From Enterobacteria phage vB_EcoS_Rogue1, in sequence record NC_019718.1: a stretch of DNA of 45,805 bases; one strand, 5' to 3'. Shown here piece by piece: positions 2,547-12,871 of this stretch; within the stretch, counting starts at the first letter, position 1; each line of letters opens with the position of its first letter. The notes under the pieces were generated by a model that was not told the origin of the DNA, ran no database searches, and saw nothing but the letters and a program-made list of their open reading frames with translations. The position numbers and the translations under genes are program-made.

Positions 2547-2924
2547 ATGATATGGATTCACACGTACTACACTGGCAAGTTCAATAGCGTAATGCACAAA
2601 CGAATGTATGACAGCTATGAATCAGCAAAGGCACAGCAGGCAGTCCTAGGTGGCGATATTTCAATCTTACAAGAAGGCTTAATCATGTTCGGACTTACTC
2701 AACCACAATTTAATGCAGTTCGCGCCCAAGCTAAGAAACTTAACGAGGCAGTGGATAAGCTGACAAGCAAGCAGAAGCAGGATAATGACATCATGAAGGC
2801 GATTATCTGTGAGTTTCATAGCCCAGTCAGTACAATCATCGAGAAGATGAAGTTTGTTTGGGTTGCAGGCTATCTTGCTGGTCGCGTAGGTAAGCGTGAA
2901 GATGGGGAGCAGATTTATGACTAA
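2547..2924 (+). CDS. hypothetical protein (125 aa)
   Basis: ORF in the same early cluster; start uncertain. Confidence 0.45.
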   Translation: MIWIHTYYTGKFNSVMHKRMYDSYESAKAQQAVLGGDISILQEGLIMFGLTQPQFNAVRAQAKKLNEAVDKLTSKQKQDNDIMKAIICEFHSPVSTIIEKMKFVWVAGYLAGRVGKREDGEQIYD

Positions 2925-3111
2925 ATCACTAGGGAAAGTCAGATGTATTGTGTCTTACAATGATAAGAAGTTCAAAACTGGTAAATCTTACAGCATTTTG
3001 TCATCACCCGCATATGGTTGGGTTAAATGTGAGTCAGAAGATGGGTGTATAGAGATGGTTAAAGATGGCAATGACATTGAGTTTGGTTACTTTGAGGTAT
3101 TTTATGACTGA
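2917..3111 (+). CDS. hypothetical protein (64 aa)
   Basis: Start refined to an ATG overlapping the upstream stop (ATGA). Confidence 0.4.
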   Translation: MTKSLGKVRCIVSYNDKKFKTGKSYSILSSPAYGWVKCESEDGCIEMVKDGNDIEFGYFEVFYD

Positions 3112-3308
3112 GCTATCAATCTGGTTCCTGGCTGGCATGTTGACGTGGATTTATTTCGTCGTCATGGCTTGACGAAAATGTTAAAAGTGGTTAGTATTAA
3201 CCACGTAGACGGCAATGACCGTAACGCGCATCGCGGAGATGCAAGCCGATAGCCGGGCTGGATAAAGATACGAGGCAAATACCACTACACCAGCGCAAAT
3301 GGTGTATG

Positions 3309-3348
3309 CCGGACCTTTCCGAGGATTGGCCGGACCTTCCGAGGATTG
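3309..3348. repeat. tandem direct repeat CCGGACCTT(T)CCGAGGATTG x2
   Basis: Copies at 3309-3328 (20 nt) and 3330-3348 (19 nt) differ by one T; about 40 bp upstream of the tRNA. Confidence 0.7.
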
Positions 3349-3386
3349 TGAAACCTCCCCGCATTCGGTAAGCGGGACTCATTCTA

Positions 3387-3462
3387 GTTCTGCTGGCGTA
3401 ACAGGATAACGCAGAGACCTCCTAAGTCTCAGTTGCTGGTTCGAGTCCAGTGCGGAACACCA
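3387..3462 (+). tRNA. tRNA-Arg, anticodon CCU (reads AGG)
   Basis: Hand-folded cloverleaf: acceptor GTTCTGC/GCGGAAC (one G-U pair), D-stem GCGT/ACGC, anticodon stem GAGAC/GTCTC, loop CTCCTAA with U33 and A37, 4-nt variable loop, T-stem GCTGG/CCAGT, T-loop TTCGAGT, discriminator A, encoded CCA; 76 nt. Confidence 0.85.
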
Positions 3463-3478
3463 AACATGGAGCATCCTA

Positions 3479-3664
3479 GTGAATAACTACGAAGTCCGTT
3501 TAACTTCCCGCCTAATGGGTCGGCAATGCAAATCTTGCCAGCAATCCTACGAAGGTAGGTTCATTGCTAAAAGCCCTGAAGAAGCAGTTGCAGCCGCAAA
3601 GGCAGCATTTAAGATTGACCTGACAGTCCACAAAGTCAGCGTTGATAAAGTATCCCTCGTTTGA
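3479..3664 (+). CDS. hypothetical small protein (61 aa, GTG start)
   Basis: ORF with GGAG RBS, followed by a rho-independent terminator; weak. Confidence 0.3.
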   Translation: MNNYEVRLTSRLMGRQCKSCQQSYEGRFIAKSPEEAVAAAKAAFKIDLTVHKVSVDKVSLV

Positions 3665-3692
3665 GATTGGTCATCTCGCAATGCAGTACTTT

Positions 3693-3716
3693 GCCCTCCT
3701 TGTGAGGGCTTTTTTT
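3693..3716 (+). terminator. rho-independent terminator
   Basis: GCCCTC-CTTGT-GAGGGC hairpin followed by TTTTTTT. Confidence 0.7.
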
Positions 3717-3763
3717 CGTCCATAGTCATGGTACAATGACTTTTAAAACAGGAGGAATATCAA

Positions 3764-4279
3764 ATGTCAGAAGAGAAAAAAATTCACCAGAAGATTGGTA
3801 ACTTCAAGGAGCTTTACAATAAGAAGTATGGCGACATTGCCAATCTTAAGATTAACCACAGATACACTCCCGAGCAGGTATTCGACATGGCTGTAAGGTA
3901 TTTCAGCTGGGCTGAAGAGCAGGCAATTAAAGCTATCGAGACAGCAAGCTTTCAGGGTGTCGTAACGGAAAACCTTGTTCACAAGCCGAGGGTATTTACG
4001 ATAACTGGATTCCAGCTTTTCTGCGGCGTTGGTCATAATGCTATTAGCAAATGGCGCTCATCACCAGGATTCGATGAAGTTATGGAGTTCGTCGACTCAG
4101 TTATCTTTGAACAGAAGTACCAGTTGGGTGTTAACAACATCGTCAACCCTGGACTTATTGGCAAAGACCTTGGTATTGATAAGCCGCAAGAGGTTAACAT
4201 CAATAACGCTTCAAATGCCGTAGTAAACGATGAGGAAGCAATGAAGGCTGCTCTGGCTTCTGTAATGGATAAACTATGA
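3764..4279 (+). CDS. putative terminase small subunit
   Basis: 171-aa ORF with strong AGGAGG RBS directly upstream of, and overlapping (ATGA), the large terminase gene; assignment by position only. Confidence 0.45.
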   Translation: MSEEKKIHQKIGNFKELYNKKYGDIANLKINHRYTPEQVFDMAVRYFSWAEEQAIKAIETASFQGVVTENLVHKPRVFTITGFQLFCGVGHNAISKWRSSPGFDEVMEFVDSVIFEQKYQLGVNNIVNPGLIGKDLGIDKPQEVNINNASNAVVNDEEAMKAALASVMDKL

Positions 4280-5844
4280 AGACATTAGTTTGGGAAGAAA
4301 TGACGCCAGCCGAAAAGCTGGCAGTTAAAGCGCTGTCCACTCACAGCTTCGAGGCATTCCTTCGCGTGTGGTTTCAGCTAAGCCAGGGAGAGCGATACAT
4401 CCCTAACTGGCATCACAAGTACCTTTGCCGAATAATTGACGAGGTTATTAGTGGCGAGCGTAGGGATACCATCATTAACGTGGCTCCTGGGGCCGGGAAG
4501 ACCGAGATTACTTCAATACACTTCCCTGTATACTCAATGCTTAAGCTAAAGAAGGTGCGAAATCTGAGCCTCTCATTCTCTGACAGTCTGGTGAAGCGCA
4601 ACTCTAAGCGTGTTCGCGACCTTATAAAGTCAGCTGAGTTTCAGGAACTATGGCCCTGTAAGTTCGGCACGTGCAAGGATGACGAGATTCAGGTTCTTGA
4701 CGAGAGTGGAAAGGTTAGGTTCGAAGCGATATCTAAGGCAATTGGCGGTCAGATTACCGGCGCTCGTGGCGGTTATATTACTGAAACCTATAGCGGTTGC
4801 TTGATGCTTGATGACCCAGACAAGCCAGACGATATGCTCAGCAAGGTAAGGCGAGAAGCTGTCCACGTTTTACTTAAAAATACCATTCGCTCACGTAGGG
4901 CGAGTAGCGTTAAAGGTAAAGCTACGCCAATTCTGTCAATTCAGCAAAGGCTTCATACTCAGGATTCAACGTGGTTCATGACTTCTGGTGGTATGGGTAT
5001 CGACTTTGATGTGGTTAAAATACCAGCACTGGTCACTGAAGAATATGTGAATGAACTCCCTGACTGGATTCGTGAGCAGTTCGAGAAGGACGTGCTTTCA
5101 TCCGAGTACGTCGAGCGAGATGGTGTTAAGTATTACAGCTACTTCCCGCAGAAGGAATCTGTGCATGACTTGATGGCAATGTGGGACTCAGATCCGTACA
5201 CGTTCCTAAGCCAGTACCAACAATCTCCAGTAGCCTTAGGTGGAAACCTGATTAACGTAGATTGGTTCGTGAGGCTTGACGAGAACAACAGGCCGCCAGT
5301 CAAGTATGACTACCGCTTCATTACAGCTGATACTGCCATGACTACGAAGAGTTACAGCGATTATTCTGTGTTCCAGCTTTGGGGTAGAAAGGATAACAAG
5401 ATTTATCTTCTGGATATGGTTAGGGGTAAATGGGAGGCTCCAGAGCTTGAGCAAAACATTCTGGAATTTGAGAGTAAGCACCGAGCAACTAGTAAAACAG
5501 ATGGTATCTTACGTAAGGTTATTATCGAGAAGAAAGCATCTGGCATAGGGCTTATCCAGTCAGCAGGTCGAACGATGCGGACTCCTATCGAGCCTTTCGT
5601 TCCCGATACAGATAAGTTAACCAGGGTGATGAGCGCATTACCACAGATTAAGGCTGGTAACGTAGTTCTGCCAGACTCAGCGCCATGGCTTACATCTCTG
5701 CTAACTGAGTTCTCGGCGTTTACTGCGGACGATTCACACCCCCATGATGACATTGTAGATACAACAACGATGGCAATAAACTGTGAATTGAACTTGAGTG
5801 ACGACCCAAGAGCTAGGTTAATGCGACTAGCTGGAGTTAAGTAA
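4276..5844 (+). CDS. terminase large subunit
   Basis: 522 aa with an N-terminal ATPase-like region (VAPGAGKTE, acidic LMLDDPD) and an acidic C-terminal nuclease-like region; sits immediately before the portal gene. Confidence 0.8.
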   Translation: MKTLVWEEMTPAEKLAVKALSTHSFEAFLRVWFQLSQGERYIPNWHHKYLCRIIDEVISGERRDTIINVAPGAGKTEITSIHFPVYSMLKLKKVRNLSLSFSDSLVKRNSKRVRDLIKSAEFQELWPCKFGTCKDDEIQVLDESGKVRFEAISKAIGGQITGARGGYITETYSGCLMLDDPDKPDDMLSKVRREAVHVLLKNTIRSRRASSVKGKATPILSIQQRLHTQDSTWFMTSGGMGIDFDVVKIPALVTEEYVNELPDWIREQFEKDVLSSEYVERDGVKYYSYFPQKESVHDLMAMWDSDPYTFLSQYQQSPVALGGNLINVDWFVRLDENNRPPVKYDYRFITADTAMTTKSYSDYSVFQLWGRKDNKIYLLDMVRGKWEAPELEQNILEFESKHRATSKTDGILRKVIIEKKASGIGLIQSAGRTMRTPIEPFVPDTDKLTRVMSALPQIKAGNVVLPDSAPWLTSLLTEFSAFTADDSHPHDDIVDTTTMAINCELNLSDDPRARLMRLAGVK

Positions 5845-5856
5845 TCATGATAAACT

Positions 5857-5879
5857 GCCCCTTACTCAGGGGCTTTTTT
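5857..5879 (+). terminator. rho-independent terminator
   Basis: GCCCCT hairpin with AGGGGC, followed by TTTTTT. Confidence 0.65.
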
Positions 5880-5893
5880 ATTGGAGAAATTAC

Positions 5894-7168
5894 ATGGTAA
5901 AAGCAGACAGCTACGCAAACATCTTTCTTAGCGGTAGTGATGGTAGTGAGGTTTACGGAAAGTTTGGCAGCCTTGGCCTAACAGATCCAGCGCAGCTTGA
6001 GCAACTTTACGTCAGCAGCGCTCTAGTTCGTCGAATTATTGATATCGTTCCAGAGGTCGCACTTGGCGCAGGCTTTAGCATTGAAGGTATCGACGACGAA
6101 GGTGCTTTCTGGTCGCGATGGGATGATTTAGGCCTTTCAGATAACGTAATCGACGCACTAGCCTGGGCGAGACTATACGGTGGCGCTGCTGTAGTGGCAA
6201 TTGTGAAGGATGGAAGGGCGCTAACCAGCCCAGCTCGTGAAGGTGCGGAGCTTGAAACGGTTCGTGTGTACGACCGGCAGCAAATTAAGGTCCAGACTCG
6301 CGAGGAGAATCCACGTAACGCGCGTTTTGGTAAGCCATTAACTTACCGCATCACACCAAACGGGTCGGCAACGTTCTACGATGTGCACTATACACGCTGT
6401 CACATCATTGATGGCGAGCGAGTACCTAACAACCTACGTCGTAATAACGATGGCTGGGGCGCAAGCGTACTAACTGGTGACTTAATTGACGCGATTGACG
6501 ACTATCAGAACTGTGAGCGACTGGCTACTCAGTTACTTCGTCGTAAACAGCAGGCGGTGTGGAAAGCAAAAGGCCTTGCTGACTTATGTGATGATTCAGA
6601 TGGATTTGGAGCAGCTCGTTTACGTCTGGCTCAGGTGGATAATAACAGTGGCGTTGGTCAGGCTATCGGGATTGACGCGGATAGTGAAGAGTACAACGTT
6701 CTCAACTCAGATATTGGCGGTATTGATACATTTCTGAGTCAGAAGTTCGATCGAATCGTTGCTCTGAGCGGTATTCATGAGATTATCCTTAAGGGTAAGA
6801 ATGTTGGTGGTGTGTCAGCAAGCCAGAACACTGCTCTAGAGACTTTCTACGGTTATGTTGACCGTAAGCGCAAGGCTGAATTATTGCCTCTGCTTGAGTT
6901 CCTGCTGCCGTTCATCGTAACCGAGCAGGAGTGGTCAGTAGAATTTAACCCTCTATCGCAGGTTAGTGACAAGGATAAATCTGAGATTCTTGAGAAGAAT
7001 GTTAACTCAGTTGCTGCATTGATTGCAGCTGGAATCATTGACGCAGACGAAGCAAGAGATACGTTGCGCGCAATTTCAACTGAGGTTAAGATTGGTGAAG
7101 GCTCAATTCAAACGGAGGTTGTAATTAATGAATCAGAAGACCCGCTGGATGTATCCGCAAATAATTGA
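5894..7168 (+). CDS. portal protein
   Basis: 424 aa; GGAG RBS; position between the terminase and head-morphogenesis genes. Confidence 0.7.
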   Translation: MVKADSYANIFLSGSDGSEVYGKFGSLGLTDPAQLEQLYVSSALVRRIIDIVPEVALGAGFSIEGIDDEGAFWSRWDDLGLSDNVIDALAWARLYGGAAVVAIVKDGRALTSPAREGAELETVRVYDRQQIKVQTREENPRNARFGKPLTYRITPNGSATFYDVHYTRCHIIDGERVPNNLRRNNDGWGASVLTGDLIDAIDDYQNCERLATQLLRRKQQAVWKAKGLADLCDDSDGFGAARLRLAQVDNNSGVGQAIGIDADSEEYNVLNSDIGGIDTFLSQKFDRIVALSGIHEIILKGKNVGGVSASQNTALETFYGYVDRKRKAELLPLLEFLLPFIVTEQEWSVEFNPLSQVSDKDKSEILEKNVNSVAALIAAGIIDADEARDTLRAISTEVKIGEGSIQTEVVINESEDPLDVSANN

Positions 7169-7892
7169 GAGCCAGATTAATCGCAGCCTTTTGGTTGCGG
7201 TATCTGAACTTATTGAGCAAATGAAGTTATCTGCAAAGAGGCTAAAAATTGACACAGCGCAGGAGATTGAAGAGGAAGATTCAGACCTTTCAGATGTAAT
7301 CTCAGCGCTGCTATCTGGTTTTGTTTCCACTCTGCCTGCGCTGGCACTAGCAATATATCGTTATAACTCGGCGCAATTCCTTAAGGTGGCCAACAACTCC
7401 GGAGGTAAGAATAATCCTGTAGTTCTTGCGCTAGGATTGTATGGTATTAACGCGGATGAACCATGGTGGCTCGACACCAGGAACTCCTGGATTGTTGGCA
7501 CGCAGTTAAGTGCATCAAAGCTGCTAAACAACATCAAGGATGATTTCATAAACAACGCCATTACTGCGCAGGCTGGTAACACTGTTGACCTTGATGATAG
7601 ATACCGAATCTACAGAAAGAGAACAGCAAATATCGCTGCTGGAATTACAGGGTCTCTAAACTCAAACCTTATGCGGAGAAGGCTTGAAGATGCCGGTGTA
7701 TCTCAGTATGTTTGGCGTGGTAGACTTGACGACAAAGAGCGACCATCTCACGTTTTGCGTGAGGGGGTTAGCTTTAAATCAGATGGTTCAGACGCTGGAA
7801 AACTTGACGGCCTTGCGATATTCCCCGGTCAGCAATACGGGTGTCGTTGCTGGGCTGTTCCTAAATGGGAGAATTTAATTAATGAAGAGTAA
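7128..7892 (+). CDS. head morphogenesis protein (Mu F / SPP1 gp7-like minor head protein)
   Basis: Position after portal; C-terminal GQQYGCRCW motif resembles the conserved motif of F-like head proteins (from memory). Confidence 0.6.
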   Translation: MNQKTRWMYPQIIESQINRSLLVAVSELIEQMKLSAKRLKIDTAQEIEEEDSDLSDVISALLSGFVSTLPALALAIYRYNSAQFLKVANNSGGKNNPVVLALGLYGINADEPWWLDTRNSWIVGTQLSASKLLNNIKDDFINNAITAQAGNTVDLDDRYRIYRKRTANIAAGITGSLNSNLMRRRLEDAGVSQYVWRGRLDDKERPSHVLREGVSFKSDGSDAGKLDGLAIFPGQQYGCRCWAVPKWENLINEE

Positions 7893-8991
7893 AATGCGTT
7901 ATGATAGCGCCAAGGTAAAAGCCCGTTTCGATGAGAACGGTTTTCTCGTGGACACCCCAGTGGTTGCTCGCGTAGGTGTACAAACCTACTATATGCCAGA
8001 TGGTTCAGAGCGCCGAGAGTTCCGTCCGGCTTCAGAGGTTTTTAAAGCCGATTCGCTGCAAAGTTACCAGGGTAAGCCGCTTACTCTTGGTCACGTGGTT
8101 GTAAACTCTGAAAATGCTAAAGAGGTGGTTGTTGGTTCTGTATCTGGGTCAGCAATGCGTCAGGACTCGGCAGTGATTGTTCCTCTTACCGTTTACGACA
8201 AGGAAGCAATTGAGAAGGCCAAGTCTGGCGTTGCTGGTGAGCTCTCTGTTGGCTACAACACTGTTGACATTGAGTCTCCTGGCTGGGGTAGTAATGAAAC
8301 GGGTGAGTACAAGCTTGATGGAGAGTACGCAAGCCAGGATGAGATTCCTGCTGATTGGGTACGCTTTGATGCGCTACAGACGAATATCGTTGTTAATCAT
8401 ATCGCACTCGTATATAAAGGTCGCGCAGGTATTGCTAAACTCAATCTGGACGCGGAACAGGAAAACCCGTATACTGATACCGTTCAATCAAATAAAGAGG
8501 ATAAATTGATGATTAAGATTAAACTCGATGGCGAACAGGAGTTCGAAATCGCCCCGGAAGTTGCTAAGCATATCGAAGCTGTTAAGGCTGATGCGGAGCA
8601 GGCTAAAGCTAAAGCTGACACTCTGGAAGCTGAGCGCGACGCACTGAAAGCTAAAGTTGATGGCATCCCCGCTGAAATCGAAGCTGCTTTAGCCAAAGCT
8701 AAGACTGATGCTGACGAAATGGCTGCCCTGGTCGCAGTTGCCGCAGAAGCTGGCGTTAAATGTGATGGCCTGGATGCTAAAGCAATCAAAGTTGCTTACG
8801 TTAAAGAAGTGTCTGGTATTGAAGTTGCTGAGAAATCTGACGCATACATCGATGCAGCCTTTGATATCGCTAAAGATAGTGATAAAATGGCCGAAGCCCG
8901 CAAAGCAGTTGCTGCTGCGGATAAATCTGACGCAGCCGACGCGCCTAAGAAATTAGACCCGCGCGCTCGCCTCGCTAAATTGAAAAAATAA
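7882..8991 (+). CDS. scaffolding-like protein (Ala/Lys/Glu-rich coiled-coil C-terminal half)
   Basis: C-terminal half is low-complexity AKAKAD/AEAE-rich, typical of scaffolds; lies between the head-morphogenesis and capsid genes. Confidence 0.55.
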   Translation: MKSKMRYDSAKVKARFDENGFLVDTPVVARVGVQTYYMPDGSERREFRPASEVFKADSLQSYQGKPLTLGHVVVNSENAKEVVVGSVSGSAMRQDSAVIVPLTVYDKEAIEKAKSGVAGELSVGYNTVDIESPGWGSNETGEYKLDGEYASQDEIPADWVRFDALQTNIVVNHIALVYKGRAGIAKLNLDAEQENPYTDTVQSNKEDKLMIKIKLDGEQEFEIAPEVAKHIEAVKADAEQAKAKADTLEAERDALKAKVDGIPAEIEAALAKAKTDADEMAALVAVAAEAGVKCDGLDAKAIKVAYVKEVSGIEVAEKSDAYIDAAFDIAKDSDKMAEARKAVAAADKSDAADAPKKLDPRARLAKLKK

Positions 8992-9002: not shown

Positions 9003-9470
9003 ATGGCAATTCGTCGTCAAGCTACTGCTGGTATGGTTGCAGATACCTCTCTGTACAATATTGATGGTGCCTGTGTAACATCTTCGGCTCTCGTGCGCAA
9101 TGTTGGCACTGCTGTTGGAGTTGATTCTGTTGTTGATGGTCACAAGGTGCTGGTAGCTCCGGCACCTGGTAATGTTTACGGCGTTCTGGTAAGGTCGCAT
9201 TACGAGTCTCCTAAAGGAACTTATGGCGGTTCTGCTGGTGATGTTGACAACTTCTCCGTGTCTAACGTAATGACTCACGGTCGAATCTGGATGGCAACTA
9301 GCCTTTCAGCAGCTCCTGCATTTGGTAGCGCCGTTACCGTTGATGCCAATGGATTAGCAACAAGCGGCGGCACCTTAACTACTAACTGGACATTCGCAGG
9401 TGGATTCCAGGCAGCTGATGCCGCATCTGGAGAGCCAGCACTGGTTGAGGTTCAGGTTATCCAAAAATAA
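9003..9470 (+). CDS. head decoration or other abundant capsid-associated protein
   Basis: 155 aa, Gly/Ala/Val/Thr-rich; strong terminator immediately downstream suggests high expression; position inside the head module. Confidence 0.45.
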   Translation: MAIRRQATAGMVADTSLYNIDGACVTSSALVRNVGTAVGVDSVVDGHKVLVAPAPGNVYGVLVRSHYESPKGTYGGSAGDVDNFSVSNVMTHGRIWMATSLSAAPAFGSAVTVDANGLATSGGTLTTNWTFAGGFQAADAASGEPALVEVQVIQK

Positions 9471-9488
9471 CTATAAACGCTTAATCAA

Positions 9489-9510
9489 ACCTCCTTCGGG
9501 AGGTTTTTTA
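9489..9510 (+). terminator. rho-independent terminator
   Basis: ACCTCC-TTCG-GGAGGT hairpin followed by TTTTTT. Confidence 0.75.
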
Positions 9511-9563
9511 TTGCTCTTTTTCTGTTAGACTGTCAATGATTATTAACCAATCAGGAGATAAAG

Positions 9564-11009
9564 ATGGCTTACACAGAAATTGCTATGGCAGTAGGTAATT
9601 CACCTGAAACCTTAGCCAGAAACGTAAAAATGATGATTTCATCAGGATTCCAGCCATATGGCGACGTGCAGATGCTGAGCGGTACCCTATTTGGCATGAA
9701 GATGGCAAAAGGAACAGCAAACAACGTTGAAGACTTCATGGTTACATCAGACACCACAATTCAGGGTTTAGTTAACAGGGTTAACCGATATCTAGCACAG
9801 GGCTGGCGAAGGTTTGGTAATGCCCACTTCGAGGATGGCGCTTATATTTCAGCTCTGGCGAAAGGTGATTTTGTAAGTGATGAGGGCGGAGGTTCAGGTG
9901 AAGCAGGTCCACAAGGTCCGGTTGGTCCAGCTGGCCCCGCAGGCGTAGCTGGTCCGCAAGGTCCGCAAGGTCCACAAGGCCCAGCTGGTGCTACCGGCCC
10001 GGCAGGCGCGGCTGGCGCTAAAGGTGACACTGGCCCCGCAGGCGTAGCTGGTCCGCAAGGTCCACAAGGTGAGACTGGAGAAGCTGGTCCACAGGGTTCT
10101 ATCGGCCCAACAGGCGCCACAGGTCCATCCGGACCAAAAGGTGATAAAGGTGATGCAGGTCCAGTTGGCCCTGCGGGATTGACTTTCCGCGGGATGTACG
10201 ACGCAGCGACAGCTTACGTTAAAGATGATGTTGTTACATTCAATAGCTCCAGCTGGTTTGCTACCACCGCTGTGACCGGAGAGAATCCAGATATTAGCGA
10301 TTCCTGGGAGTTGCTGGCCGCACAGGGCGCCCCGGGTCCGCAAGGCGCAACTGGTCCAACAGGTCCAACTGGCCCGGCAGGTCCGGCAGGTATTCAAGGG
10401 GCTCAGGGAGAGAGAGGGATTCAGGGTGAGCAAGGTCCGTCAGGCCCGCAAGGCTTGCAAGGTGCAGCTGGTCCAGTTGGACCTCAAGGCCCAGCAGGTC
10501 CGCAGGGTGAGCGAGGAATACAGGGTCCGGTTGGCCCTCAAGGTCCAATTGGCCCTAAAGGCGATAAAGGTGACGCAGGGATGTCAAGATCATTCCTTAA
10601 AGTTAGAACATCACCAAATACAGGCACTAATCACATGATTAGGCTTCCAGCACCTTTAAGCAATATTTCTATAGGGATAAGACTGGATTCAAACATTCGT
10701 TTTAGTATTAGGGCTTGGATTGATGATGGCACTACAGCTAGAACTATAAGGGGTAATATTGAAGCGTTCAATGAAACTGGAGTTTACACTAACACAACAG
10801 TAAGAACTTCGATATCTACATCAACAGAAACTGGCACAGTACTTCTTGGTGATATTGGAGAGTTCCAAGGTATCAGGCCATACACTCTTAGTTTTTATGA
10901 AACCACAACAGACACAATGTGGAGAGCAACCATAAATCTATTTACAGCTGGATACATTGTGAATGGAAACCAAGCCCTATGCATAGAGCTAGTAAGGCTT
11001 GATGCATAA
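9564..11009 (+). CDS. collagen-like (Gly-X-Y repeat) protein with non-collagenous N- and C-terminal domains
   Basis: Two long runs of [12 protein letters not shown] triplets (about 9880-10180 and 10320-10580); opposite-strand ORFs here are repeat artefacts. Confidence 0.8.
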
Positions 11010-11012
11010 AAT

Positions 11013-11037
11013 CAATAGAGAAATGATTACTCTATTG
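11013..11037 (+). other. perfect 8-bp stem hairpin (CAATAGAG, 9-nt loop, CTCTATTG) just after the collagen-like gene stop
   Basis: Inverted repeat read directly; no T-run follows, so a processing site or protein-binding site is as likely as a terminator. Confidence 0.4.
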
Positions 11038-11062
11038 TCCCAATCAAAATCTCGTGTATAAT
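11035..11062 (+). promoter_or_regulatory. sigma70-like promoter (TTGTCC, 16-bp spacer, TATAAT) upstream of the capsid gene
   Basis: Perfect -10 TATAAT at 11057-11062 with a 4/6 -35 hexamer. Confidence 0.4.
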
Positions 11063-11100
11063 TGACACGTAAACTCATAAACAAAAGGATGCATCTTAAT

Positions 11101-12048
11101 ATGACTATCAAACTTGACGCTTTCGAGCAAGAAAAGATTACTAACCACCTGCGAGCTATGGGCGTTGATAAGGCTGATGCGGCTGGTATCTGGACCGTGA
11201 AGCAGCTAACTGCAAGCCTGAATAAAGCTTACGAAACTGAGTACGACCAGAACTCCGTAGTAAACCTGTTCCCTGTAAGCAATGAAATTCCCGGCTATGC
11301 TAAGTACTTCGAGTATCCGGTATTTGATGGCGTTGGTATTGCTCAGATCGTAGCTGACTACACTGATGACCTGCCACTTGTTGACGCTTTAGCAACTGAA
11401 CGTCAGGGTAAAGTTTTCCGTTTTGGTAATGCTTTCTTGATTTCCATCGATGAAATTAAAGTTGGTCAAGCTACCGGTCAGTCACTATCTACTCGCAAGC
11501 AATCTCTTGCTTTCGAAGCTCACGATAAGCTGCTTGATAAACTGGTATGGTCAGGCTCTACTGCTCACGGTATCCCGAGTGTGTTCGACTATCCAAATAT
11601 CAACAACGTTGTTAGCGGTGGCTCATGGTCTCAACCAACTACAGCAGTAAGCGATATTACAAGTCTGCTGGATATTATCGAGACTTCAACCAATGGTCAG
11701 CACCGTGCAACTCACCTGCTTCTGCCTACTACCGCTCGTCGTATCATGCAGAACCTGGTTCCTGGTACCTCTGTTAGCTACGGTGAGTTCTTCCGCCAGA
11801 ACAACAGCGGAGTAACTGTTGAGTTCGTTCAGTACCTGAATGATTACAATGGCACTGGCACCTCTGCTGCTATTGCTTATGAGAAAGACCCTAACAACAT
11901 GGCCATCGAGATTCCTGAAGCGACTAACGCACTGCCAGCTCAGCCGAAGGATTTGCACTTCCGTGTTCCGGTAACTTCTAAAGCAACTGGTTTGATCGTG
12001 TTTAGGCCTTTAACGATGGCTGTAATGAAAGGCATTACTTTCGCGTAA
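11101..12048 (+). CDS. putative major capsid protein
   Basis: 315 aa (start refined to the ATG after AAAGGA RBS), flanked by strong terminators, positioned after the scaffold and before the neck genes. Confidence 0.65.
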   Translation: MTIKLDAFEQEKITNHLRAMGVDKADAAGIWTVKQLTASLNKAYETEYDQNSVVNLFPVSNEIPGYAKYFEYPVFDGVGIAQIVADYTDDLPLVDALATERQGKVFRFGNAFLISIDEIKVGQATGQSLSTRKQSLAFEAHDKLLDKLVWSGSTAHGIPSVFDYPNINNVVSGGSWSQPTTAVSDITSLLDIIETSTNGQHRATHLLLPTTARRIMQNLVPGTSVSYGEFFRQNNSGVTVEFVQYLNDYNGTGTSAAIAYEKDPNNMAIEIPEATNALPAQPKDLHFRVPVTSKATGLIVFRPLTMAVMKGITFA

Positions 12049-12063
12049 TAGCACTTTTTGATA
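12049..12063 (+). promoter_or_regulatory. palindromic box TAGCA-CTTTT-TGATA directly abutting the capsid stop, followed by a terminator hairpin
   Basis: Member of the repeated box family. Confidence 0.45.
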
Positions 12064-12069
12064 AGACAT

Positions 12070-12096
12070 AGCACCCTTCGGGGTGCTATTTTTGTT
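12070..12096 (+). terminator. rho-independent terminator
   Basis: AGCACCC-TTCG-GGGTGCT hairpin followed by ATTTTTGTTT. Confidence 0.75.
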
Positions 12097-12111
12097 TAAG
12101 GAGGAGCAAAC

Positions 12112-12597
12112 ATGAACTACAACGACTATTTCGCTTATGATGACGGAAAGATATTCTGGACTTCAAAAACAACAGATATGGCGCACAACATAAGACTTGG
12201 GGATGAGGCCGGGACTTGCAATGGTCTTGGTTACAAAAGGGTTATGTTGTTTGGTAAGCACACCATGGTTCATCACATAGTTTGGATCATGCATGGCAAT
12301 GAGATACCAAAGGGCATGGAGGTTGACCACTTGGATCATGATAGGCGCAACAACAGGATAGAGAATCTAAGGCTGGTAGACAGGGGTGTAAACATGAGGA
12401 ATAAGTCTACGTACAGGAACAGCAAGACCGGTCACCATGGAGTTACTATCAGGCCGGACAGTGGAAAGTATCGAGCTAAGATAACGATTAATAAGAAGGT
12501 TATCAACTTGGGTACTTTTGATTCAATAGATGACGCAATATCAGCCAGAAAGGATGCGGAAGTAAAGTATGGATTCCATGCCAACCACGGGGTATAA
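12112..12597 (+). CDS. HNH homing endonuclease with C-terminal AP2-like DNA-binding domain
   Basis: HNH core VDHLDHDRRNNRIENLRLV..N; C-terminal GVTIRPDSGKYRAKI...LGTFDSIDDAISARKDAEVKYGF resembles an AP2 domain; AGGAGG RBS. Confidence 0.85.
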   Translation: MNYNDYFAYDDGKIFWTSKTTDMAHNIRLGDEAGTCNGLGYKRVMLFGKHTMVHHIVWIMHGNEIPKGMEVDHLDHDRRNNRIENLRLVDRGVNMRNKSTYRNSKTGHHGVTIRPDSGKYRAKITINKKVINLGTFDSIDDAISARKDAEVKYGFHANHGV

Positions 12598-12625
12598 TCA
12601 AACAATCGAAACAAAGGAGGAAAGA

Positions 12626-12871
12626 ATGAAACTGTTACATAAAGGTGCTTGTGTTATCCGTCTTGGCGCAAAAGATTATCTTCCAGGCGACACTATCGAG
12701 GTTGAAGAGTTATCAGTTGGATTAAAGATTTTGGTAGCTGAAGGCAAGCTTGAGGTTGAGGATGACCATAAGGCAACTAAAGAAATCGAGCAGGAAGTTA
12801 AAGCCAAGGCTAAGCCTAAGAAGCAACCAAAGACTATTGATGAAGCTGAGAATGGCGGCGACTACAAATAA
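12626..12871 (+). CDS. hypothetical protein (81 aa, Lys/Glu-rich C-terminus)
   Basis: Start refined to the ATG after AAGGAGG RBS; followed by a terminator. Confidence 0.5.
   Translation: MKLLHKGACVIRLGAKDYLPGDTIEVEELSVGLKILVAEGKLEVEDDHKATKEIEQEVKAKAKPKKQPKTIDEAENGGDYK

Follow-up and report, generated by a model that had tools for sequence, protein, structure and literature searches.

Gene 21 of Enterobacteria phage vB_EcoS_Rogue1 raises the question of where on the virion a collagen-like protein resides when its modules are typical of tail fibres and its gene lies directly before that of the major capsid protein. We have analyzed the whole 45,805-nucleotide stretch of DNA that carries the gene (sequence record NC_019718.1; hereafter the window), and all coordinates refer to it unless a contig is named. 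Our results make it probable that the product, gp21, is a collagen-like fibre on the outside of the capsid, docked at the hexon centres, rather than a tail fibre. An initial annotation had suggested a capsid-attached fibre or decoration, or a moron. The first of these proposals gains support from a tandem DUF1737 anchor, from the position of the gene 5' of the capsid gene, from the precedent of T1 gp48 and from co-variation with the genes of the capsid shell, and from these lines of evidence we infer the capsid location.

Domain architecture and virion presence of gp21

The gene and the predicted parts of its product are as follows.

9564..11009, plus strand: gene 21 of vB_EcoS_Rogue1, open reading frame with ATG start, 481 amino acids, 48.5 kDa; proposed head fibre
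9564..9716, plus strand: DUF1737-like repeat 1, amino acids 1-51, beta-alpha-beta-beta (AlphaFold2 strand 5-11, helix 14-26, strands 29-39 and 42-49); proposed capsid-docking unit
9717..9878, plus strand: DUF1737-like repeat 2, amino acids 52-105, same predicted fold (AlphaFold2 strand 54-63, helix 66-78, strands 82-90 and 93-102); tandem duplicate of repeat 1
9888..10184, plus strand: collagen-like run 1, amino acids 109-207, 33 uninterrupted Gly-X-Y triplets; ~28 nm if triple-helical
10176..10322, plus strand: middle globular insert, amino acids 205-253, CBM_5_12-like (PF02839 below threshold)
10326..10586, plus strand: collagen-like run 2, amino acids 255-341, 29 uninterrupted Gly-X-Y triplets; ~25 nm
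10596..11006, plus strand: C-terminal all-beta head domain, amino acids 345-481; exchangeable distal module

The 481-amino-acid open reading frame recognized in the initial annotation has an ATG start with a Shine-Dalgarno sequence, AGGAG (9553-9557), 6 nt upstream, and its coordinates, length and mass are those of Table S1 of the published Rogue1 description (PMC3496638). The family phrog_5073 matches the product from end to end (E=1.3e-158). The two long Gly-X-Y runs between globular N- and C-terminal domains were likewise borne out: the runs contain ~18% Pro and match Pfam Collagen (PF01391) with E=3.3e-27, far above chance, and the globular parts comprise residues 1-108, 205-253 and 345-481. 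Helix lengths were computed at 0.286 nm per residue. When the middle insert was scanned by itself, it matched PF02839 with E=9e-4 and 19.6 bits, against a cut-off of 26.2, and many collagen-containing homologues have PF02839 at the equivalent place. The family as a whole shows a common layout, with a ~105-residue N-domain, collagen, usually a CBM_5_12-like insert of ~48 residues, and an all-beta C-domain of ~135 residues.

Virion mass spectrometry, which the initial annotation had named as a check, is already in print. Kropinski et al. (2012, Virol J 9:207, PMC3496638) separated caesium chloride-purified Rogue1 virions into ~6 bands by sodium dodecyl sulphate-polyacrylamide gel electrophoresis and analyzed three of them by MALDI-QqTOF mass spectrometry. 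The 52.7-kDa band was gp21, with 59.5% peptide coverage, whereas the 30.5-kDa and 25.9-kDa bands were the capsid protein and the major tail protein. The gp21 peptides came from the N-domain (residues 2-19 and 76-100), collagen run 1 (101-209, as tryptic peptides 101-153, 154-192 and 193-209), run 2 (285-332, as 285-317 and 318-332) and the C-domain (361-414). Peptide 2-19 represents the intact N-terminus. Because the Pro-rich peptides were of unmodified mass, gp21 lacks hydroxyproline, as do other bacterial and phage collagens. We conclude that gp21 is a full-length, unprocessed, non-hydroxylated component of the virion, abundant enough for staining.

The supplementary table of the same paper already labels gp21 collagen-like, and its GPVGP repeats and a region missing from phage JK06 are noted there. 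The main text quotes 57.8 kDa for gp21, against 48.5 kDa in the paper's own tables, and the site of gp21 on the virion is not stated (PMC3496638). Niu et al. (2014) did not detect the short homologue among seven excised bands; this negative result carries no information, since at ~30 kDa the homologue would run together with the capsid protein. No collagen-like protein of Drexlerviridae or Rogunavirus was turned up by searches of the literature.

The proposed N-terminal anchor and the probable site of attachment

The N-domain gives an indication of where gp21 is attached. Its AlphaFold2 model (mean predicted local distance difference score 88.6) shows the order beta-alpha-beta-beta twice, with one helix and three strands predicted for each half. 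Alone, the domain matches Pfam DUF1737 (PF08410) with 27.9 bits and E=2e-6, above the cut-off of 24; within full-length gp21 the score is 22.2 bits, slightly under the cut-off, and nine of 12 family members match the model. The single repeats match weakly and in register (repeat 1, 17.4 bits; repeat 2, 13.7 bits), and when their profiles were aligned with each other by hhalign, the probability was 98% with E=1.9e-13. On these profile comparisons, the N-terminal 105 amino acids of gp21 are a tandem duplication of DUF1737.

DUF1737 has been seen in place on another phage. In gp84 of the Shiga toxin (Stx) phage phi24B, residues 2-57, with one helix and three antiparallel strands, were identified by cryo-electron microscopy (cryo-EM) as the capsid-binding domain, which forms a hexamer in the central pore of the capsid hexamers, with Tyr42 as the 'tooth' (bioRxiv 10.64898/2026.04.10.717836). 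Residues 1-60 of gp84 aligned by hhalign with repeat 1 of gp21 at 97.6% (E=4.4e-12) and with repeat 2 at 91.6% (E=8e-7), and the N-terminal pattern 'MA...SP..LA...GWQPYG' is common to both proteins; the gp84 sequence used (vb_24B_21) was checked by Tyr42, Gly54 and the SISSP motif. Relatives of the N-domain were gathered by tblastn, by full-length search and by a profile search of a representative library, since a word-indexed search with the N-domain gave one fragment. Among 1.84 billion proteins, the profile search found no more than 73 cluster representatives; its distant matches, at 28-44 bits, were bona fide and often tandem DUF1737 proteins. A search of the PDB with the N-domain model gave no convincing relative, and neither terminal domain of gp21 matched a solved tail-fibre receptor-binding fold. 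Neither outcome that the initial annotation had named as refuting was seen, gp21 being present both in virions and in related genomes.

The chief alternative is that gp21 is a tail-associated fibre, either a side fibre or a neck or collar whisker, whose N-domain binds a tail, connector or neck protein and whose tip determines receptor binding and host range. We regard this as unlikely. Both phrog_5073 and RefSeq name gp21 a 'tail fiber protein', although this label is an automated name rather than an experimental result. Phage tail fibres commonly have collagen repeats, CBM5/12-like inserts and beta-sandwich tips, and the C-domain recurs at 69% identity in a Vequintavirinae protein with another N-terminus. 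Relatives of the N-domain are joined to VTGKPATF repeats of the tail-fibre type and, in a weak case, to an exopolysaccharide (EPS) depolymerase. A pseudo-hexameric base of a trimer could suit a six-fold tail or neck ring too, and a 'constriction at the neck' was noted in the Rogue1 paper (PMC3496638). However, hexon binding is the sole structurally defined role of DUF1737, and the genome already encodes gpJ (21764-25189) and a lateral fibre of 904 amino acids (30092-32809), both apart from gene 21.

The position of the gene argues in the same direction. As the initial annotation had it, gene 21 lies between a decoration gene and the capsid gene, both of which have clear Pfam matches.

9003..9470, plus strand: gene 20, cement/decoration protein, 155 amino acids, beta-tulip family (Phage_cement, PF22758, E=2.8e-23)
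11101..12048, plus strand: gene 22, major capsid protein, HK97-fold, PF09950 type (E=8.7e-41), true start at 11101; proposed docking partner (hexon centre)

The closest database genomes to Rogue1 are those of the T1-like Rogunavirus coliphages JK06 (97%) and phiKP26 (94.5%). A gp21-type gene lies directly 5' of the capsid gene in these two and in BECP10, Sf12, AugustePiccard (Bas01), e4/1c, Phagiculus, RobRod40 and three metagenomic contigs, so that the check for presence in relatives gave a consistent answer. In all 12 genomes and contigs examined the gene occupies the interval from cement to capsid gene and never the tail module, which speaks against a tail fibre. Between the cement gene and the gp21-type gene there are 0-3 variable genes, encoding an SGNH/GDSL esterase ('head decoration'), DUF1353 or hypothetical proteins. 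The slot is vacant in BUCT-XGG-1. The gene of protein P0126, which has the same anchor and a non-collagen shaft, is directly upstream of a capsid gene as well, and that of P0133, a relative of the N-domain, directly follows a portal gene.

Sequence divergence sets the anchor with the shell and apart from the tail. In BECP10 and e4/1c, the portal, MuF, protease, DUF4054, gp26, tail terminator and major tail proteins are 93-100% identical to those of Rogue1, whereas a diverged block comprises cement (51-53%), the fibre N-domain (30-37%), capsid (66-72%) and gp24 (51-60%). Thus the proteins to which a tail-bound anchor would attach are conserved where the anchors are not. Across seven phages, N-domain identity correlates with that of capsid, cement and gp24 (r=0.95-0.98) and hardly with that of the major tail protein (r=0.32). 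The protein that co-varies best with the fibre anchor is gp24 (DUF7444; r=0.98). By this comparison, Rogunavirinae appear to exchange their capsid shell as a cassette, the mosaic block relative to BECP10 and e4/1c being 9003-12871.

For the capsid-bound fibre that we favour, we propose the following arrangement. The collagen triple helix would force gp21 into a homotrimer, and three chains with two DUF1737 units each would place six units at the fibre base as a pseudo-hexameric ring. Tandem duplication and collagen trimer together would in this way match the six-fold pore of the hexon, and the ring would dock on the central pore of the major-capsid-protein hexamer. With 60 hexamers, a T=7 head could carry up to 60 fibres (180 chains). 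From its base, each fibre would consist of a triple helix of ~28 nm, a small CBM5/12-like knob, a second triple helix of ~25 nm and a trimeric beta-sandwich head, with a total length of ~55-60 nm, compared with a head diameter of 53 nm. Weak adhesion to glycans is suggested by the CBM-like knob together with the beta-sandwich head, which is exchangeable; these distal modules would probably bind surface glycans such as host lipopolysaccharide, capsule or mucus, and a hold of this kind, weak and reversible, would make productive contact by the tail more likely. Trimer formation, docking at hexon centres, copy number and adhesin function are all features that we infer. Up to 180 chains are consistent with the appearance of gp21 among the few stained bands, which does not by itself prove this number.

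Beside the tail-fibre name and the tail-fibre-like modules, several observations weigh against docking at the capsid. The DUF1737 match is remote, with 15-28% identity; both repeats of gp21 have a hairpin loop 4 residues shorter than the one that bears Tyr42 in gp84, and the conserved aromatic residue after this loop is found only in repeat 2 (10 of 12 sequences) and is absent from repeat 1. The capsid protein of phi24B, a T=9 podovirus, is of another family than that of Rogue1 (PF09950, T=7). That neighbouring genes are physically linked could by itself account for the co-variation with shell genes. In the 2012 negative-stain description no fibres are mentioned on Rogue1 heads, although collagen helices of 1.5 nm are hard to see in this way, and the intensity of the gp21 band, hence the copy number, cannot be read from the same paper (PMC3496638). 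Finally, P0161, an EPS-depolymerase-like protein of 912 amino acids (phrog_4250, PF27114; contig L015, 2191-4929), starts with a weak tandem DUF1737-like domain (E=4.6e-5), and its gene sits among small genes of unknown function outside a head module. This protein may contradict the rule that DUF1737 denotes a capsid protein, or it may be a depolymerase displayed on the capsid.

A fibre may also be attached to the capsid at another place. Docking on the cement trimers at three-fold or quasi-three-fold sites, instead of hexon centres, would fit a collagen trimer directly, and the cement homologues T1 gp49 and Sf11 gp40 have been located at three-fold sites by cryo-EM (T1: PMC11945409). T1 gp48, encoded in the corresponding slot, joins such trimers, and the identities of N-domain and cement protein correlate with r=0.95. 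We consider this arrangement highly improbable for gp21, since its N-domain is alpha/beta, is neither a beta-tulip nor a cement paralogue and has no PF22758 match. In Sf12, moreover, the cement protein is 75% identical to that of Rogue1, whereas the N-domain is 98% and the capsid protein 99% identical. Both the six units that follow from the tandem duplication and the example of phi24B favour the six-fold site.

That gp21 is not a functional virion component at all, being a moron, a host-directed collagen mimic, or a mis-annotated DNA polymerase or intein-containing protein, is scarcely credible: the legacy 'DNA polymerase I' annotation in JK06, C119 and phiKP26, the gene's own flanking terminator and atypical composition, the vacant slot of BUCT-XGG-1, the 203 codons missing in JK06 and the intein considered by the Rogue1 authors (PMC3496638) might be cited for it, but the published spectrometry already refutes it, with gp21 forming a visible band of purified virions whose peptides span the N-domain, both collagen runs and the C-domain, and the JK06 deletion keeps the frame and leaves both terminal domains intact. 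The moron offered in the initial annotation is excluded with it. As for the two rejected labels, gp21 has no polymerase or exonuclease Pfam domain, and 'DNA polymerase I', given to JK_26P and its homologues, is flagged as incorrect in PMC3496638; there is no intein Pfam domain either, the intein was rejected in the same paper, and the JK06 difference is a repeat-mediated in-frame deletion.

Returning to the capsid-docked fibre, a wider proposal can be made, for which we see the chances as evenly balanced. T1-like phages would possess a 'capsid display slot' 5' of the capsid gene, in which a tandem-DUF1737 adaptor plugs any trimeric fibre into the hexons. Up to 60 fibres of ~55 nm would give ~3x particle reach, their length would be tunable by repeat-mediated in-frame deletion, as in JK06, and dual fibres would occur, as in the metagenomic contig L012. 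The shafts seen with the tandem-DUF1737 anchor are collagen with a beta-sandwich, tail-fibre-type repeats and a coiled coil; enzymes are possibly also among its cargo.

Some further observations concern the contents of this interval. L012, which is T1-like, holds two tandem-DUF1737 proteins in one slot (2759-3601 and 4001-5578), one of 280 amino acids with VTGKPATF-type repeats and the other a collagen fibre of 525 amino acids, an arrangement that implies either a mixed decoration of the capsid or a contest between the two for the same sites on it. An SGNH/GDSL esterase (phrog_9703, 'head decoration') is often found between cement and capsid genes, as in Sf12 (5401-6693), Bas01 (2584-3873), L012 (1384-2670) and contig L013 (2835-3917), and recalls the capsid-bound NanS-p esterase of phi24B. 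Among the SGNH esterases and small hypothetical proteins of the slot, no significant DUF1737 match was found (Sf12 esterase, 9.1 bits), and only the 280-residue L012 protein has this domain.

Variation of the proposed fibre and the neighbouring elements

The number of collagen triplets varies strongly among relatives, from 10 in JK06 and 13 in BECP10 to 62 in Rogue1. Gene 26 of JK06 (278 amino acids; contig L006, 2501-3337) equals Rogue1 gene 21 minus exactly 609 nt (203 codons), in frame. The deletion runs precisely between the two copies of an 11-nt direct repeat, and both terminal domains are 100% identical to those of Rogue1.

9915..9925, plus strand: 11-nt direct repeat GGTCCGGTTGG, left copy, within a GPVGP codon block
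10524..10534, plus strand: 11-nt direct repeat GGTCCGGTTGG, right copy

This deletion reflects either a natural variation of stalk length or a collapse during assembly of the JK06 record, which is error-prone.

The distal end varies by exchange. The Sf12 C-domain is unrelated to that of Rogue1, and the Rogue1-type C-domain that is shared with Vequintavirinae occurs there in a myovirus protein. In this phage, the rV5-like UPEC06 (contig L004, 3327-9438), two collagen proteins of 1266 and 532 amino acids are encoded just downstream of the decoration and capsid genes; the 532-residue protein carries the Rogue1-type C-domain (69%), and the DUF1737 anchor is absent from both.

The initial annotation had called the C-domain AGG-rich and read this as a sign of foreign origin. 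One part of this claim stands: among its 11 Arg codons there are 5 AGG and 5 AGA, its GC content is 38% compared with ~44-45% for the genome, and the exchange of C-terminal modules is real. AGG by itself, however, shows no enrichment over the genome (p=0.16), and other genes are equally rich in AGR (AGA or AGG) codons. AGG is the commonest Arg codon of the phage (25%; 133 of 523 in the 32 genes counted), and a phage-encoded tRNA-Arg(CCU) at 3387-3462 decodes it. Per gene, the AGR fraction ranges from 0 (protease, major tail protein) to 0.89 (lateral tail fibre), with 0.83 in the HNH endonuclease gene. In terms of sequence evidence, the mosaic nature of the C-domain is better shown by comparison of homologues than by codon usage.

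Around gene 21, the head genes follow in the order portal (5894-7168), MuF-like head morphogenesis protein (7128-7892), DUF2213 protease/scaffold (7882-8991), cement, gene 21, capsid and HNH endonuclease. The following signals lie between them.

9487..9506, plus strand: intrinsic terminator between the cement gene and gene 21, 8-bp stem, dG -11.5 kcal/mol, z -4.1, with a U-run, then TTTTTTATT
11013..11037, plus strand: AT-rich 8-bp hairpin 3' of the gene 21 stop codon, dG -7.4, without a U-run; not a canonical terminator
12068..12089, plus strand: strong intrinsic terminator after the capsid gene, dG -18.3, z -5.8; closes the gene 21-gene 22 unit

The terminator upstream of gene 21 was thus correctly recognized in the initial annotation, and the 8-bp hairpin downstream is present but weak. 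This hairpin overlaps a promoter-like site, TTGTCC-16-TATAAT, at 11035-11062. Two minus-strand open reading frames over the collagen region (9842-10120 and 9894-10433) were rejected as genes, being artefacts of GGN/CCN codon periodicity.

Two side observations concern the genes that follow. The published peptides of the capsid protein begin only at residue 43, and its band ran at 30.5 kDa compared with 34.4 kDa predicted, which together fit the loss of ~40 N-terminal residues at maturation; the text of PMC3496638 sets this band against the 39.8-kDa product of gene 19, the DUF2213 protease/scaffold, labelled 'major head subunit'. In Rogue1, the HNH endonuclease gene (12112-12597), which separates the capsid gene from gp24, is probably a mobile homing element. 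Its position is vacant in BECP10, JK06, T1 and the metagenomic relatives, and phiKP26 has just a short HNH gene there on the opposite strand.

Significance and comparison with known systems

The collagen-like nature of gp21 and its presence in the virion are already published (PMC3496638). What our study adds is the putative tandem DUF1737 capsid-docking module, the logic of a three-fold-to-six-fold adaptor, and a candidate capsid display slot conserved in Drexlerviridae. If the proposal is true, the DUF1737 principle of capsid binding would reach from Stx podoviruses to T1-like siphoviruses, and tandem duplication would be a simple means of fitting trimeric fibres to the six-fold sites of a capsid. 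The proposal would set right the widespread 'DNA polymerase I' and 'tail fiber protein' mis-annotation in dozens of therapeutic-candidate coliphage genomes. It would also provide a natural, dispensable, high-copy scaffold for capsid display with variable stalk length and exchangeable tip, and would bear on the adhesion of O157-targeting phages such as Rogue1 in the gut or on cell surfaces before tail engagement.

In terms of modules, gp21 resembles the collagen-like tail fibres of phages (phrog_5073, phrog_1806; E. coli prophage EPcl, PMC3368898), which share its Gly-X-Y shafts, CBM5/12-like interruptions and exchangeable C-terminal tips. These fibres differ in having another N-terminal anchor and in being encoded in the tail rather than the head module. 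In terms of its proposed role, gp21 is closer to T4 Hoc, T5 pb10 and phi29 gp8.5, dispensable capsid accessories that project outward and are thought to be weakly adhesive, Hoc and pb10 being located at hexon centres. Unlike gp21, they are immunoglobulin (Ig)-like monomers or an alpha-helical coiled coil, with neither collagen nor DUF1737.

T1 shows the same genetic layout as Rogue1, with cement gp49, an annotated terminator, the slot gene gp48, capsid gp47 and a terminator. By cryo-EM, gp48 lies on the capsid surface in 60 copies, each replacing one gp49 in 60 heterotrimers, and its flexible, protruding Ig-like domain was proposed to aid adsorption (PMC11945409). gp48 matches PF22758 and consists of a cement domain and Big_2. 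On the one hand, the two slot proteins are encoded at the same place; on the other hand, gp48 is anchored by its beta-tulip cement domain, whereas gp21 lacks such a domain and has collagen and a beta-sandwich instead of Big_2.

phi24B gp84 and gp21 both start with DUF1737, with one helix and three strands; a linker comes next and then a functional module that faces outward, and for both proteins six DUF1737 units would be expected at each docking site. gp84, with a single DUF1737 per chain, assembles as a true hexamer, whereas gp21 would present two per chain on a trimer, and the two phages further differ, as described above, in capsid family, T number and Tyr42 loop. The cargo of gp84 is an SGNH esterase of the NanS-p type that is cleaved off, whereas the collagen fibre of gp21 stays attached, considering that peptides from all its domains were recovered from the single 52.7-kDa band.

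SPP1 gp12 is a tiny protein of ~64 amino acids whose gene lies between the scaffold and capsid genes. It contains neither DUF1737 nor distal globular domains, in contrast to gp21 with its 481 residues, two long helices, CBM-like knob and beta-sandwich head. Like the fibre proposed here, it is an accessory protein thought to mediate adhesion. Because it is a collagen-like trimer that binds hexon centres, at quasi-six-fold positions, we consider SPP1 gp12 the nearest functional precedent for gp21.

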